Sequence record: MH051916
DNA length: 64,000 bases
Source: Enterobacteria phage vB_EcoM_IME340
Reading direction: 5' to 3' (one strand)
Shown: piece after piece, positions 5,029 through 46,580 of the stretch
Position numbering within the stretch: position 1 is the first letter of the stretch
How the letters are laid out: each line of letters begins with the position of its first letter
The notes under the pieces: generated by a model
Database searches by the model: none
What the model was told of the DNA's origin: nothing
The model's input: only the letters and a program-made list of their open reading frames with translations
Program-made: the position numbers and the translations under genes

Positions 5029-6653
<1,625 letters not shown>

Positions 6654-34628: not shown

Positions 34629-34701
34629 TGGGAATTAGCCAAGTTGGTAAGGCACTGGATTTTGATTCCAGGATGCAAAGGTTCGAGTCCTTTATTCCCA
34701 G
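34629..34701 (+). tRNA. tRNA-Gln (anticodon UUG)
   Basis: Cloverleaf folded by hand: acceptor tgggaat/attccca, anticodon loop ttTTGat, T-arm aaagg-ttcgagt-ccttt. Confidence 0.85.
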
Positions 34702-34702
34702 C

Positions 34703-34789
34703 GCGAGAATGGTCAAATTGGTAAAGGCACAGCACTTAAAATGCTGCGGAATGATTTCCTTGTGGGTTCGAGTCCCACTTCTCGCACCA
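34703..34789 (+). tRNA. tRNA-Leu (anticodon UAA), class II, encoded CCA
   Basis: Acceptor gcgagaa/ttctcgc, anticodon loop ctTAAaa, long variable arm, T-loop gttcgag, ends ACCA. Confidence 0.85.
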
Positions 34790-34794
34790 AATTT

Positions 34795-34868
<74 letters not shown>

Positions 34869-34878
34869 ATTTAATTTA

Positions 34879-34952
34879 CTCCGTGTAGCTCAGTTTGGTA
34901 GAGCGTCTGCTTTGGGAGCAGAATGTCGCAGGTTCAAATCCTGCCGCGGAGA
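34879..34952 (+). tRNA. tRNA-Pro (anticodon UGG)
   Basis: Acceptor ctccgtg/cgcggag, D-arm gctc-agtttggtag-agc, anticodon loop ttTGGga, T-arm gcagg-ttcaaat-cctgc. Confidence 0.85.
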
Positions 34953-34954
34953 CT

Positions 34955-35044
34955 GGAGGCGTGGCAGAGTGGTTTAATGCACCGGTCTTGAAAACCGGCA
35001 GTCGCTCCGGCGACTCATAGGTTCAAATCCTATCGCCTCCGCCA
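34955..35044 (+). tRNA. tRNA-Ser (anticodon UGA), class II
   Basis: Acceptor ggaggcg/cgcctcc, anticodon loop ctTGAaa, long variable arm, T-loop ttcaaat, encoded CCA. Confidence 0.85.
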
Positions 35045-35049
35045 GTTTT

Positions 35050-35125
35050 GCTGATTTAGCTCAGTAGGTAGAGCACCTCACTTGTAATGAGGACGTCGGC
35101 GGTTCGATTCCGTCAATCAGCACCA
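35050..35125 (+). tRNA. tRNA-Thr (anticodon UGU)
   Basis: Acceptor gctgatt/aatcagc, anticodon loop ctTGTaa, T-loop ttcgatt, encoded CCA. Confidence 0.85.
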
Positions 35126-35126
35126 A

Positions 35127-35201
35127 GGCCCTGTAGCTGGAAGGTTCAAGCAAGCGACTCATAATCGCCAGATGGTGGTTCAATTCCACCCAGGGCCACC
35201 A
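35127..35201 (+). tRNA. tRNA-Ile (anticodon CAU, presumably lysidine-modified to read AUA)
   Basis: Acceptor ggccctg/cagggcc, anticodon loop ctCATaa, T-arm ggtgg-ttcaatt-ccacc, encoded CCA; T4 tRNA-Ile is known to carry a CAU-derived anticodon. Confidence 0.75.
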
Positions 35202-35210
35202 AATTAATTT

Positions 35211-35297
35211 GGGGAGTTATCCCGTAGAGGTAGCGGTGTGGACTGTAAATTCATTGTCATTGCGACTCGGGTGGTTCGACTCCATCACTCCCCACCA
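35211..35297 (+). tRNA. Class II tRNA-like gene, probable tRNA-Tyr (anticodon GUA)
   Basis: Acceptor ggggagt/actcccc, anticodon arm gtgga-ctGTAaa-ttcat (two G-U pairs), long variable arm, T-arm ggtgg-ttcgact-ccatc, encoded CCA; D-stem has a mismatch. Confidence 0.55.
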
Positions 35298-35301
35298 ATT
35301 T

Positions 35302-35376
35302 GGATGTGTAGCTCAATGGCAGAGCGATCGCCTGTTAAGCGATTGGTTATAGGTTCGAATCCTATCACGTCCGCCA
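35302..35376 (+). tRNA. tRNA-Asn (anticodon GUU)
   Basis: Acceptor ggatgtg/cacgtcc, D-arm gctc-aatggca-gagc, anticodon arm atcgc-ctGTTaa-gcgat, T-arm atagg-ttcgaat-cctat, encoded CCA. Confidence 0.8.
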
Positions 35377-35380
35377 AATC

Positions 35381-35456
35381 CGAGGCATAGCTCAGAAGGA
35401 AGAGCAAGGACCTTCTAAGTCCTAGGTCGTAGGTTCGATCCCTACTGCCTCGACCA
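35381..35456 (+). tRNA. tRNA-Arg (anticodon UCU)
   Basis: Acceptor cgaggca/tgcctcg, D-arm gctc-agaagga-agagc, anticodon loop ctTCTaa, T-arm gtagg-ttcgatc-cctac, encoded CCA. Confidence 0.8.
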
Positions 35457-39552: not shown

Positions 39553-40795
<1,243 letters not shown>

Positions 40796-40796
40796 T

Positions 40797-40826
40797 GTTT
40801 ACTTCCTCCAAGGACTTTGATACTAT
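40797..40826 (+). promoter_or_regulatory. T4 early promoter (gtttac / tactat)
   Basis: gtttac, 18 bp spacer, tgatactatacattcatcaacta. Confidence 0.6.
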
Positions 40827-40853
40827 ACATTCATCAACTACTTGGAGGAAATT

Positions 40854-41267
40854 ATGACTCGTATCAATTTAACACTTGTTTCTGAACTGACCGACCAACA
40901 TCTTATGGCTGAGTATCGTGAATTACCACGCGTATTTGGTGCAGTCCGTAAACATGTTCAAAACGGTAAACGTGTAAAGGATTTTAAAATCTCTCCAACA
41001 TTTATCTTAGGCACAGGTCACGTAACATTCTTTTATGACAAACTCGAATTTTTACGTTTACGTCAAATCGAGCTAATCGCTGAATGCTTGAAACGTGGTT
41101 TCAAAATCAAGGACACGACTGTCCAGGATATTTCCGACATCCCTGTCGAATTTCGTAATAATTATGTCCCGTCCGAAGCGTCCATTGCGATAAGTCAAGC
41201 TCGCTTAGATGAAAAAATTGCTCAACGCCCTACTTGGTACAAATACTATGGTAAATCAATTTACTAA
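40854..41267 (+). CDS. denV: Endonuclease V (pyrimidine dimer glycosylase) DenV
   Basis: ATG at [31 protein letters not shown], matching recalled T4 endo V; the track ORF began 4 codons upstream. Confidence 0.93.
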
Positions 41268-41273
41268 GGAAAA

Positions 41274-41534
41274 ATGAAAATGTATCAAGAATTTATCGCT
41301 GAAGCAGATGCCAAAGGCCCCAAATTTAAAGTTAAAGCTTTCGTTGGTGATGCCGAAGATTTTGGCTCATTAAAACGTAATGGGTATTTTTTCTTAGGTG
41401 GTGATGGTAAAGAAATCAACACCTATGCAAAACGTAGTGAAATTGCTTATGTTGCTGCAAGTCCTAAAGTAGATGTTGACGATATTGGATACGATTTTAA
41501 CAACTTCGGAATTATTTCTGGCGGTGAAGCTTAA
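41274..41534 (+). CDS. Internal-protein-like protein with capsid-targeting sequence
   Basis: 86 aa; N-terminus MKMYQEFIAEA. Confidence 0.7.
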   Translation: MKMYQEFIAEADAKGPKFKVKAFVGDAEDFGSLKRNGYFFLGGDGKEINTYAKRSEIAYVAASPKVDVDDIGYDFNNFGIISGGEA

Positions 41535-41537
41535 ACG

Positions 41538-41568
41538 GTTTACGCTTAAGTATTAATATGGTATAATT
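41538..41568 (+). promoter_or_regulatory. T4 early promoter (gtttac / tataat)
   Basis: gtttac, ~19 bp spacer, ggtataattactctatcaaaac. Confidence 0.55.
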
Positions 41569-41597
41569 ACTCTATCAAAACAAACAAGGAAACAAAA

Positions 41598-41912
41598 ATG
41601 AAAACATATAAAGAATTTATTGCAGAATCCGCCAACCAACGCGTTGAAGGTGGTTATATTTGGATTGAACAAGTTGAGCCACCGAGCCGCACTTCTACAG
41701 GTAAATGGAAAATTACTGTTGATGGTCCTGGTGGTAAACGTAGGACTCTTAAAGAAATTAATGGGTACTATGAAGAAGCTCTTTCGGATGCAGGAACTTA
41801 CATGATGCAAATCATGATTAAAAACCCTGAAAACCGTTTTGCAGCTAAAGTCTTCCGACGCATCGGTAATAAACTTTATGACGCATACTCTAAAAACTTC
41901 CCTAAAGAATAA
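41598..41912 (+). CDS. Internal protein, ipII-like size
   Basis: 104 aa; N-terminus MKTYKEFIAESA (capsid-targeting sequence). Confidence 0.72.
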   Translation: MKTYKEFIAESANQRVEGGYIWIEQVEPPSRTSTGKWKITVDGPGGKRRTLKEINGYYEEALSDAGTYMMQIMIKNPENRFAAKVFRRIGNKLYDAYSKNFPKE

Positions 41913-41938
41913 CATGAATTAAAACAATAGGAACAAAA

Positions 41939-42517
41939 ATGAAAACGTATCAAGAATTTATTGCTGAAGCTTCTGTAGTAAAGGCCAAAGGCATTAATAA
42001 GGACGAGTGGAACTATCGTGGTGGAAACGGCTTTGACCCTAAAACAGCCCCTATTGAACGATACTTAGCTACAAAAGCTTCCGATTTTAAAGCTTTCGCT
42101 TGGGAAGGACTTCGCTGGCGTACCGATTTAAATATTGAAGTTGACGGACTTAAATTTGCTCATATTGAAGATGTTGTTGCTAGTAACTTAGACGCAGCTT
42201 TTGTTAAAGCCGACAGTGATCTTCGTCGCTGGAATTTAAAACTGTTCTCTAAACAAAAAGGCCCGAAGTTTGTGCCTAAAGCCGGTAAATGGGTCATTGA
42301 TAATAAATTAGCTAAGGCTGTCAACTACGCTGGTCTTGAATTCGCCAAGCACAAATCATCATGGAAAGGTCTTGATGCAATGGCTTTCCGTAAAGAATTT
42401 GCCGATGTTATGGCTAAAGGCGGCTTTAAGGCAGAAATAGATACCTCTAAAGGTACGTTTAAGGACGCTAATGTTCAGTACGCTTACGCCGTTGCTAATG
42501 CAGCCCGTGGTAATTAA
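41939..42517 (+). CDS. Internal protein, ipIII-like size
   Basis: 192 aa; N-terminus MKTYQEFIAEAS, identical over the first 11 residues to the capsid-targeting sequence recalled for T4 internal proteins. Confidence 0.75.
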   Translation: MKTYQEFIAEASVVKAKGINKDEWNYRGGNGFDPKTAPIERYLATKASDFKAFAWEGLRWRTDLNIEVDGLKFAHIEDVVASNLDAAFVKADSDLRRWNLKLFSKQKGPKFVPKAGKWVIDNKLAKAVNYAGLEFAKHKSSWKGLDAMAFRKEFADVMAKGGFKAEIDTSKGTFKDANVQYAYAVANAARGN

Positions 42518-42694
42518 TAAGGCCGATACTTAGGCCTATTTACATTCAAATAACATGGGAACAACCTGGACCTCATGATTCTATGAGGGATTCCCGCCAA
42601 CCTGTAATAAGGTCGAGCCCAAGTGCGGTAATGGGTAAATACAGAAATGGACAATTCACGCGCCATGGAATGGCCCAAATTTAGAGAGAATAAA

Positions 42695-43237
42695 ATGAGA
42701 ACATTTTTAACTGGTCCTTATCTATCCCTGATGAATGCTTTTACACACCATTCTGATGCTAGAGTAGAAGAAATTTGTAATAGTGGATTTTATGTACCTG
42801 ATTCGCCACATTTATTTAAAGAATACTGCACACTTCGATTAGATGGTGGACGTCAATCCGGTAAATCAACTGCAGTAACTAATTTTGCCGCTAATTGGTT
42901 GTATGACGGTGGAACAGTTATTGTTCTTTCTAATACTTCAGCTTACGCTAAAATTTCTGCGGGCCACATTAAAAAAGAATTTTCACGCTATTCTAATGAT
43001 GATATTCGATTCCGTTTATTTACTGATTCTGTCCGTAGTTTTGTTGGTAATAGAGGTAGCAAGTTCAGAGGTTTATCGCTTTCGCGGATTTTGTATATAA
43101 TCGATGAGCCTGTTAAATCTCCTGATATGGATAAAATTTACGATATTCATATTGAAACTGTGCAATACTGCTGCAATAGTAAATGTTGCATTGGTGGTAT
43201 TACTCGTCCACAGTTTTTCGTAATTGGAATGCAATGA
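42695..43237 (+). CDS. P-loop NTPase
   Basis: Walker A GGRQSGKST and Walker B-like ILYIIDEP; start placed at MRTFLTG with gagagaataaaATG (track ORF began 16 codons upstream). Confidence 0.6.
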   Translation: MRTFLTGPYLSLMNAFTHHSDARVEEICNSGFYVPDSPHLFKEYCTLRLDGGRQSGKSTAVTNFAANWLYDGGTVIVLSNTSAYAKISAGHIKKEFSRYSNDDIRFRLFTDSVRSFVGNRGSKFRGLSLSRILYIIDEPVKSPDMDKIYDIHIETVQYCCNSKCCIGGITRPQFFVIGMQ

Positions 43238-43563
43238 TGACAGATACGCAACTTTTCGAATATCTTTATTTTTCGCCAAAAACTATTAAAAATAAATTGG
43301 TGAATCATTTTGAAATTTTGGCAAATAACAACGTCTTGAGCGAATTTTATCCTAAGCAATACAAATTACAAAAAGGCGTATTCAAAGGATGCAGAGTTTT
43401 GTGTACTGCTCCTAATGCAAGATTAATGAATAAAATTCCATATTTTACCATGGAATTTATTGATGGACCTTTTAAAGGACTAATCACCCAAAGTTTAATG
43501 GCATATGATTCTGAGCCATTTTTAATTAAAGAACAATCTTGGATAAATTTATTTTCTAATTGA
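43234..43563 (+). CDS. Hypothetical protein
   Basis: 109 aa from ATG overlapping the previous stop (ATGATGA). Confidence 0.5.
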   Translation: MMTDTQLFEYLYFSPKTIKNKLVNHFEILANNNVLSEFYPKQYKLQKGVFKGCRVLCTAPNARLMNKIPYFTMEFIDGPFKGLITQSLMAYDSEPFLIKEQSWINLFSN

Positions 43564-43569
43564 GGTTAT

Positions 43570-43932
43570 ATGAAAGCATATCAAATTCTTGAAGGCACGC
43601 ATAAAGGTACTATTTATTTTGAAGATGGTATTCAAGCACGAATTATTGTCTCTAAAACTTTTAAAGATGACTCTTTTGTAGACCCAGAAATTTTCTATGG
43701 TTTGCATGCCCGTGAAATTGAAATTGAAACACAACCTACAGTTAAAATTGAAGGTGGTCAACACCTGAACGTTAACGTTCTGCGTCGTGAAACTCTGGAA
43801 GATGCAGTTAAGCATCCGGAAAAATATCCGCAGCTGACCATCCGTGTATCCGGATATGCAGTTCGCTTTAACTCTCTGACTCCGGAACAGCAACGCGACG
43901 TTATTGCTCGTACCTTTACTGAGAGTTTGTAA
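43570..43932 (+). CDS. Autonomous glycyl-radical cofactor, GrcA/YfiD-like (T4 Y06I family)
   Basis: 120 aa; C-terminal [24 protein letters not shown] glycyl-radical motif. Confidence 0.85.
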
Positions 43933-44153
43933 TGGCAAAGATAATTATTGAAGGTTCTGAAGATGTGCTAAATGCTTTCGCCGAGTGGTTTAGTAATTCA
44001 GGCGAACAGCAATTTAATGAAGCGTGGAACATGGGTGATATTAGTGGAATTTATCCTACGACAGAAATTTCTGTTCAAGGATATGGAATTCATGAACCTA
44101 TTCGTTTAGTTGAATATGATTTGGGAACAGGTGAGGAAGTAAAATATGATTGA
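43932..44153 (+). CDS. Hypothetical protein
   Basis: 73 aa ORF, start overlaps the preceding stop. Confidence 0.5.
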   Translation: MAKIIIEGSEDVLNAFAEWFSNSGEQQFNEAWNMGDISGIYPTTEISVQGYGIHEPIRLVEYDLGTGEEVKYD

Positions 44154-44412
44154 AGACATTAAAGGTTATAAGCCACATACTGACGATAAAATCAGTAAAG
44201 TGAATGCTATCAAAGACGCTGAAGTTCGTTTAGGACTTATCTTTGATGCTTTATACGATGAATTCTGGGAAGCACTAGATAATTGTGAAGACTGTGAATT
44301 CGCGAAGAATTATGCTGAAAGCCTCGATCAGTTAACTATTGCTAAAACGAAACTCAAAGAAGCCAGTATGTGGGCTTGTCGTGCTGTGTTCCAACCAGAG
44401 GAAAAATATTAA
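44146..44412 (+). CDS. Hypothetical small helical protein (vs.4 position)
   Basis: 88 aa; coupled to neighbours. Confidence 0.5.
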
Positions 44413-44690
44413 TGGCTCAATTAAGCGCAGGGTTTGGTTATGAGTATTATACTGCCCCTCGTCGTGTATCTGTTGCTCCTAAGAAAATTCAAAGTCTTGA
44501 TGACTTCCAGGAAGTAGTTCGTAAAGCTTTCCAGGACTATGCGAGTTATCTTAAAGAAGATTCACAGGACTGTCTCGAAGAAGATGAAATTGCTTACTAT
44601 GAGCAGCGTCTTGAACAGCTCAAAAACCTACATGAGGTTCGTGCAGAAGTTACAAAGTCTATGAATAAATTGATTAGATTTAAAGAATAA
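44412..44690 (+). CDS. Hypothetical small protein
   Basis: 92 aa from ATG at MAQLSAGF overlapping the preceding stop. Confidence 0.5.
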
Positions 44691-44693
44691 CTG

Positions 44694-44723
44694 TTTACTT
44701 TTCCTCTTGACTGTGGTATAATT
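44694..44723 (+). promoter_or_regulatory. T4 early promoter (gtttac / tataat)
   Basis: gtttac, 18 bp spacer, tgtggTATAATttttctatcag, then gaggagaataacATG. Confidence 0.65.
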
Positions 44724-44749
44724 TTTCTATCAGTTAAGAGGAGAATAAC

Positions 44750-45211
44750 ATGACTATCAACACAGAAGTTTTTATCCGTCGAAATAAGCTTCGTCGTCAC
44801 TTTGAGTCGGAGTTTCGTCAAATTAACAATGAGATTCATGAGGCATCAAAAGCAGCAGGAGTCTCATCGTTTCATCTAAAATATTCTCAACATCTTCTTG
44901 ATCGTGCAATTCAACGGGAGATTGATGAGACATATGTTTTTGAATTATTCCACAAAATAAAAGACCATGTTTTAGAAGTTAATGAATTCCTGAGTATGCC
45001 TCCGCGTCCTGACATTGATGAGGATTTTATTGATGGAGTTGAATATCGCCCTGGACGTTTAGAAATTACAGATGGAAATCTTTGGCTTGGATTTACGGTT
45101 TGTAAGCCTAATGAGAAGTTCAAAAACCCGTCACTTCAATGCAGGATGGCAATTATCAACAGTCGTCGTTTACCAGGAAAGGCTTCTAAAGCAGTAATTA
45201 AAACTCAATGA
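44750..45211 (+). CDS. regB: Site-specific endoribonuclease RegB
   Basis: 153 aa, same length as T4 RegB; basic N-terminus; expected position between vs genes and denV side. Confidence 0.8.
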   Translation: MTINTEVFIRRNKLRRHFESEFRQINNEIHEASKAAGVSSFHLKYSQHLLDRAIQREIDETYVFELFHKIKDHVLEVNEFLSMPPRPDIDEDFIDGVEYRPGRLEITDGNLWLGFTVCKPNEKFKNPSLQCRMAIINSRRLPGKASKAVIKTQ

Positions 45212-45764: not shown

Positions 45765-46104
45765 AATTTTGGTTTTATGTATAGGATTAATTTCATTTTC
45801 TGCTTATGCGTCAGCAGATACATCATATACTGAAATTAGGGAGTATGTGAACCGCACTGCAGCGGATTATTGTGGGAAAAATAAAGCATGCCAAGCTGAA
45901 TTTGCGCAGAAATTAATATATGCATATAAAGACGGAGAAAGAGATAAATCAAGCAGATACAAAAACGATACATTATTAAAACGATATGCTAAAAAGTGGA
46001 ATACCCTAGAATGTTCAGTTGCGGAGGAAAAAGATAAAGCCGCTTGTCATTCAATGGTTGACCGTTTAGTAGATTCTTATAATCGAGGATTGAGTACTAG
46101 ATGA
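45757..46104 (+). CDS. vs: Valyl-tRNA synthetase modifier-like secreted protein
   Basis: 115 aa with signal peptide, same length and position as T4 vs. Confidence 0.6.
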   Translation: MTKILVLCIGLISFSAYASADTSYTEIREYVNRTAADYCGKNKACQAEFAQKLIYAYKDGERDKSSRYKNDTLLKRYAKKWNTLECSVAEEKDKAACHSMVDRLVDSYNRGLSTR

Positions 46105-46580
46105 TTGTAAAATATATCAAGGGCGATATTGTCGCCCTCTTTCTTGAAGGTAATATTATTGCGCACGGGTGTAACTGTTTTCATACAATGGGCAGTGGTG
46201 TAGCTGGTCAATTAGCAAGAGCCTATCCCAAAATTTTAGAAATAGATAAAACCACTACTGAGTACGGTTCTCGTGATAAATTAGGCGATATGTCTATTGT
46301 TTTTAAACATAAACCTAATGGGTTTGGCATATGTTATAACTTGTATACGCAATACGAACCAGGTCCTAATCTTGATTATGGTGCTTTAGTAAACTGCATG
46401 ATAGAATTAAATCTACAGGCAGAAACCCTTTTGTTTAAACCGGTAATTTACATTCCACGCATAGGTTGTGGTATTGCTGGCGGCGATTGGGATAAGGTTT
46501 CTAAATTAATCGACATGTTTACTCCTGATATTGATTTAATAGTGGTGGATTATGAAAGTACATTACCCACATCCGTTTGA
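46101..46580 (+). CDS. Macro-domain (ADP-ribose binding/processing) protein
   Basis: 159 aa; macro signatures IKGDIV...NIIAHGCNCFHTMGSGVAGQLARAYP and IPRIGCGIAGGDW. Confidence 0.75.
   Translation: MIVKYIKGDIVALFLEGNIIAHGCNCFHTMGSGVAGQLARAYPKILEIDKTTTEYGSRDKLGDMSIVFKHKPNGFGICYNLYTQYEPGPNLDYGALVNCMIELNLQAETLLFKPVIYIPRIGCGIAGGDWDKVSKLIDMFTPDIDLIVVDYESTLPTSV

Follow-up and report, generated by a model that had tools for sequence, protein, structure and literature searches.

The stretch of DNA analysed here (the window) is 64,000 nucleotides of Enterobacteria phage vB_EcoM_IME340 (sequence record MH051916), whose genome is of the Tequatrovirus (T4-like) type, and the block in question is syntenic with vs.6-vs.5-vs.4-vs.3-regB of T4 (Table 1). 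From e to tk, the T4 proteins fall on the window in the same order, and most of the genes, including vs.7, vs.6, vs.4, vs.3, regB, vs.1 and vs, are 95-100% identical to their T4 counterparts. When a 1.3-kb query across the block was searched, 817 phage records were matched, 491 of them at 95-99% identity; these 491 are, with few exceptions, Tequatrovirus phages that infect Escherichia or Shigella, and the best nucleotide match was Shigella phage SP21535 (98.7%).

Table 1. Genes and features of the vs.6-regB block (positions counted from the first nucleotide of the window)
Feature	Position	Strand	Basis or remark
vs.6, GrcA-like glycyl-radical cofactor gene, 120 aa	43570-43932	+	Pfam Gly_radical PF01228, E 2.2e-18; 97.5% identical to T4 Vs.6
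vs.5, 73 aa, acidic, pI about 4.1	43932-44153	+	orphan protein; 8-nt overlap with vs.4
vs.4, assigned as acb2, 88 aa, predicted cyclic-dinucleotide sponge (anti-CBASS protein 2)	44146-44412	+	PDB 7UQ2, NP_049728, PF24729
vs.3, assigned as tadIV-1, 92 aa, predicted N7-cADPR sponge (type IV Thoeris anti-defence protein 1)	44412-44690	+	PDB 9WIW, T4 Vs.3
promoter-like site (TTTACT, 17 nt, TG-TATAAT)	44694-44722	+	consensus scan, 10/12 matches, extended -10
regB endoribonuclease	44750-45211	+	Pfam REGB_T4, E 1e-68; 98.7% identical to T4 RegB

Three small ORFs of 73, 88 and 92 aa had been described between the GrcA-like gene and regB, and we found all of them on the plus strand, with both flanking genes confirmed by Pfam. 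Their proposed translational coupling is borne out by the junctions: the vs.4 stop and the vs.3 start have a common TAATG, vs.5 and vs.4 overlap by 8 nt (ATGATTGA), and the vs.6 stop and the vs.5 start also have a common TAATG, with a 1-nt overlap. A GAGG-type Shine-Dalgarno sequence lies 8-11 nt upstream of each start, that of vs.5 being weaker (GAGAG). The ORF lister gave the 92-aa gene as a 106-aa ORF started by GTG at 44370; T4 and the crystallised homologue of the 92-aa protein start instead at the in-frame ATG, position 44412 here. Since the 92-aa gene starts at this ATG and the 73-aa gene lies upstream, the interval given in the original prediction (44146-44690) holds for the 88-aa and 92-aa genes only, and the 73-aa gene falls just ahead of it. 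We regard the three ORFs as real genes and not as chance frames, because there are solved proteins that match the 88-aa product (PDB 7UQ2, E 9e-56) and the 92-aa product (PDB 9WIW, E 4.5e-37), and because the 73-aa product occurs in its entire length in 985 phage records, all of them with Straboviridae-type hosts.

Between vs.3 and regB there is a gap of 59 nt, and the promoter-like site sits in this gap, where the coupled vs.6-vs.3 block ends; it is a pattern match only, and the total of such sites in the region is not above the shuffled expectation. An Rfam scan of the whole window returned the tRNA cluster alone and no RNA element in the block. This cluster consists of nine tRNA genes at 34629-35453 on the plus strand (Rfam tRNA, 59-74 bits); T4 is usually credited with eight tRNAs. 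The RegB cleavage motif GGAG is absent from 43500-44739, that is, from the vs.6-vs.3 block, and the first GGAG after 43500 is at 44740, inside the Shine-Dalgarno sequence of regB itself. Avoidance of RegB sites in the coupled block was considered and rejected, because a sequence of this composition should contain about two such motifs by chance (a rough estimate), and their absence is not significant.

According to the original prediction, a homologue of T4 Vs.4/Acb2 may be among the three ORFs, and comparison with T4 Vs.4 and with the Acb2 structures identified the 88-aa ORF as this homologue, while the 73-aa ORF had no similarity to Acb2. The 88-aa protein is identical to PDB 7UQ2 (molecule 'Vs.4') at 86 of 88 positions and 97% identical to T4 Vs.4 (NP_049728), which has the same length and the same position between vs.5 and vs.3, the differences being three conservative substitutions in the window protein (E13D, E14D, G17S). 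On the Pfam family PF24729 (Acb2_Tad1_hairpin), it scored 70.6 bits (E 1.2e-19), above the cut-off of 27 bits. Acb2 of phage PaMx33 (p26; PDB 8H2J, 8IXZ) belongs to the same family but was matched marginally (E about 0.09); in the alignment with p26, its essential pair Y11/K26 falls on Y8/K23 of the 88-aa protein. The ligand contacts Y8, K23 and F82 of T4 Acb2 are all present, and Y37, A57, L60, D61, T64 and T68 are conserved. Judged by the family match and by the N-terminal Tyr/Lys pair plus F82, the 88-aa ORF is the Vs.4/Acb2 orthologue.

Previous studies found T4 Vs.4 genetically as an anti-CBASS factor which binds cGAMP and which crystallised as a hexamer with three cGAMP. For T4 Acb2 the KD for 3',3'-cGAMP is about 84 nM, and its dinucleotide spectrum is the same as that of PaMx33 Acb2. 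However, PaMx33 Acb2 also binds cyclic trinucleotides via R67/T74, whereas T4 Acb2 binds neither cA3 nor cAAG, for which the proposed cause is a pocket narrowed by Y37, A57, L60, D61 and T64. Because the contact and pocket-narrowing residues are shared with T4 Acb2, we expect the 88-aa protein to bind cyclic dinucleotides and not cA3 or, as in T4 Acb2, any other cyclic trinucleotide. Being 97-98% identical to the T4 protein that was crystallised as a hexamer, it would most likely form an interlocked hexamer with three cyclic dinucleotides (3',3'-cGAMP and related CDNs) trapped at the dimer interfaces, where Y8 would contribute pi-stacking and K23 salt bridges (the role of K23 is taken from its equivalence to PaMx33 K26, and the roles of Y8 and F82 from the T4 mutants Y8A and F82C). 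Such a sponge would keep the free signal under the level that activates CBASS effectors. Further, Panoptes is triggered when Acb2 binds the decoy 2',3'-c-di-AMP, and this triggering is weakened by Y8A and by the escaper mutation F82C; in Panoptes hosts, where sequestration of the decoy is sensed, the Acb2 of this phage would accordingly be predicted to be a liability.

A second point was missed in the original prediction: the neighbouring 92-aa ORF (Vs.3) is also a member of a characterised sponge family, TadIV-1, which captures a different signal. The 92-aa protein matched TadIV-1 of phage UPEC07 (PDB 9WIW) over its full length, and it is 96% identical to T4 Vs.3, with which it shares the 92-aa length, the long form and the position directly upstream of regB; the four substitutions in the window protein (N38K, R45S, T64E, S81T) all lie outside the validated residues. 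R17, R18, K24 and K25 are kept, and the 9-residue loop insertion of UPEC07 TadIV-1 is absent from the window protein, as it is from the T4 protein. The equivalent of UPEC07 K34 is T4 K24 in the published work (PMC13243611) and K25 in our HMMER alignment, one residue off; since both lysines are present, the mismatch leaves the conclusion unchanged. With the family match, a length of more than 80 aa with an N-terminal flexible region, and R17/R18/K24, the 92-aa ORF is, on this comparison, the Vs.3/TadIV-1 orthologue.

The study that deposited 9WIW as apo TadIV-1 of UPEC07 (PMC13243611, Nat Commun, April 2026) established T4 Vs.3 as TadIV-1 and found vs.3 to be both necessary and sufficient for T4 to overcome type IV Thoeris. 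According to this study, TadIV-1 sequesters N7-cADPR and does not degrade it (KD about 216 nM, apparently specific for N7-cADPR), and it is a dimer of two-helix hairpins with a fold unlike all other sponges and a pocket formed by a disordered N-terminal loop, in which R17, R18 and K24 are important in the T4 protein. In the same study the Straboviridae homologues fell into two classes, a long one of about 90 aa that is active and a short one of about 70 aa that is not, and the 92-aa protein has the length of the active homologues. By analogy, the window protein is most likely a dimer of two-helix hairpins in which N7-cADPR would be bound by the flexible N-terminal loop (R17, R18, K24) of one subunit together with helix alpha1 of its partner, and this capture would keep type IV Thoeris from activating its caspase-like effector.

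Taken together, it is very probable that Acb2 and TadIV-1, both functional as sponges, are encoded at 44146-44690. The two genes are orthologues of the T4 genes, their frames are intact and coupled, and the residues with mutational support are conserved. Their oligomeric state, ligand binding and defence phenotypes are inferred from the published work on T4, UPEC07 and PaMx33 and would be expected to follow it.

The remaining gene of the group, vs.5, differs between the window and the T4 reference. T4 reference Vs.5 (NP_049729) is the same gene and has the same first 17 residues, but it diverges thereafter and ends at 58 aa instead of the 73 aa found in the window and in all other T4 records checked. 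In the reference NC_000866, vs.5 (6382-6558) has one base missing (alignment column 82), which shifts the frame after codon 17, while the DNA is otherwise about 95% identical to that of the window. Among the T4 records checked, the deleted version is carried by X04567, AF158101.6 and NC_000866.4 only; nine other T4/T4T records span one extra base, eight at 98.8% identity and KJ477685.1 at 97.6%. In the resequenced T4 genome MT984581, vs.5 has 222 nt and an 8-nt overlap with vs.4, as in the window, and its product is identical to the window protein at 71 of 73 residues. The 58-aa Vs.5 of the T4 reference is thus very probably a legacy sequencing error. This annotation may be part of the reason why Vs.5 has been overlooked, and screens based on the reference coordinates may then have tested a truncated protein.

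Vs.5 itself had no match in PDB, Pfam or NCBIfam (in NCBIfam, the 88-aa and 92-aa proteins likewise lacked a usable match), and it belongs to phrog_1986, a family without an assigned function. An exhaustive profile search with Vs.5 against 1.84 billion representatives found a handful of small relatives only, which share the motifs F..WFSNSGEQ and, at the C-terminus, VEYD..T.EE; long hits (895-1839 aa), each made up of 5-10 short stretches, were set aside as apparent repeat or low-complexity matches. A literature search on vs.5 returned nothing but clinical papers using 'vs.'. The structure model built from 11 close homologues was not used (pLDDT 57.6), and with distant relatives added the AlphaFold model reached pLDDT 89.6 and pTM 0.70. 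In this model Vs.5 is predicted to have an α+β fold, in which residues 10-33 form one long helix that packs against a beta hairpin. The description of the three ORFs as helical consequently suits Vs.4 and Vs.3, as their solved structures demonstrate, but not Vs.5, with its predicted helix plus hairpin.

One alternative concerns this protein and is compatible with the two-sponge explanation: all three ORFs may form an anti-defence cassette in which Vs.5 is a third inhibitor or sponge. The overlap of vs.5 with acb2 by 8 nt and the TAATG it shares with vs.6 are consistent with such a cassette, as are its full-length conservation in Straboviridae records, the small size and acidity of the protein, and a confidently predicted fold which has no significant match among solved structures. 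Vs.5 would be co-translated with the two sponges, and its position ahead of them is suggestive; gene packing like that at vs.5-vs.3 is, to our knowledge, universal in T4 early regions. No sequence or fold similarity was found between Vs.5 and the sponges Tad1, Tad2, Acb2, Acb4, sequestin, lockin and TadIV-1, and when Vs.3 to Vs.8 of T4 were expressed singly, type IV Thoeris was inhibited by Vs.3 only (PMC13243611). We consider a three-gene cassette unlikely on this evidence; as a tentative suggestion, Vs.5 could be the third protein of the block to act against defence, with a fold not seen before.

Another alternative is that the two orthologues have decayed in function in this phage through inactivating substitutions. 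The three changes in Acb2 do lie in the N-terminal ligand-binding arm, between Y8 and K23, and TadIV-1 carries four, but each difference from T4 in the two proteins is either a conservative exchange (E to D, G to S, S to T) or outside the validated residues, no frame is broken, every residue with mutational support is conserved, and TadIV-1 of UPEC07 is active though far more divergent, including its insertion. Decay is therefore very unlikely, and the reading of both genes as functional sponges is retained.

The last alternative, a single sponge (the 88-aa protein as Acb2, with the 92-aa ORF coding for some unrelated helical protein or for one of the endoribonuclease/RegB-domain type), can draw on the molecule name 'Endoribonuclease' of PDB 9WIW and on the RegB-domain annotation of neighbours in some phage records, but it is scarcely credible, since Pfam gave no REGB_T4 match for the 92-aa protein and PMC13243611 describes 9WIW as apo TadIV-1, by which N7-cADPR is sequestered and not cleaved. 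In the records of phages HY01 and PEC04 (hits H14-H16), the gene or genes in the block are called 'endoribonuclease RegB domain-containing protein', and the hit table does not say which of them is meant. The sole Pfam hit of the 92-aa protein was Tex_N, below threshold (E 0.021). A RegB-related nuclease was ruled out for Vs.3 by the missing REGB_T4 match and by the deposition paper, and the RegB/endoribonuclease label appears to be a carry-over from the adjacent regB.

Both sponges have already been characterised in T4, Acb2 in 2023 and TadIV-1 in 2026, and since the proteins of the window are 96-97% identical orthologues of these T4 proteins, the finding as such is already known. In the public records of close relatives, however, all three genes are called 'hypothetical protein' or, wrongly, 'RegB domain-containing', and naming of acb2 and tadIV-1 is due. 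By analogy with T4, we predict that a phage with acb2 and tadIV-1 would be resistant to cGAMP-type CBASS and type IV Thoeris and sensitive to Panoptes, a profile that would be relevant when T4-like phages are picked for therapy.

Several differences from T4 were observed elsewhere in the window. Between the lysozyme gene e and vs.8 (40027-42517), the gene order is unlike that of T4: denV (40854-41264, 91% identical to T4) lies between e and ipIII and not beside vs.8, and no match to T4 ipII was found, small ORFs of 86 and 104 aa being present at the internal-protein locus. At vs.8 (42583-43237), T4 Vs.8 was matched in two frames, with 42583-42678 corresponding to a near-N-terminal part and 42647-43234 to the remainder (83% identical), which indicates that vs.8 is frameshifted or differently started here; in a close relative it is annotated as a shorter product of 180 aa. 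Downstream of the block, the Tk.4 macro-domain protein (46101-46580; Pfam Macro, E 6.2e-08) is 58% identical to T4 Tk.4, while its neighbours are 94-100% identical. This allele of an ADP-ribose-related domain, which lies close to the sponge genes, is thus locally divergent.
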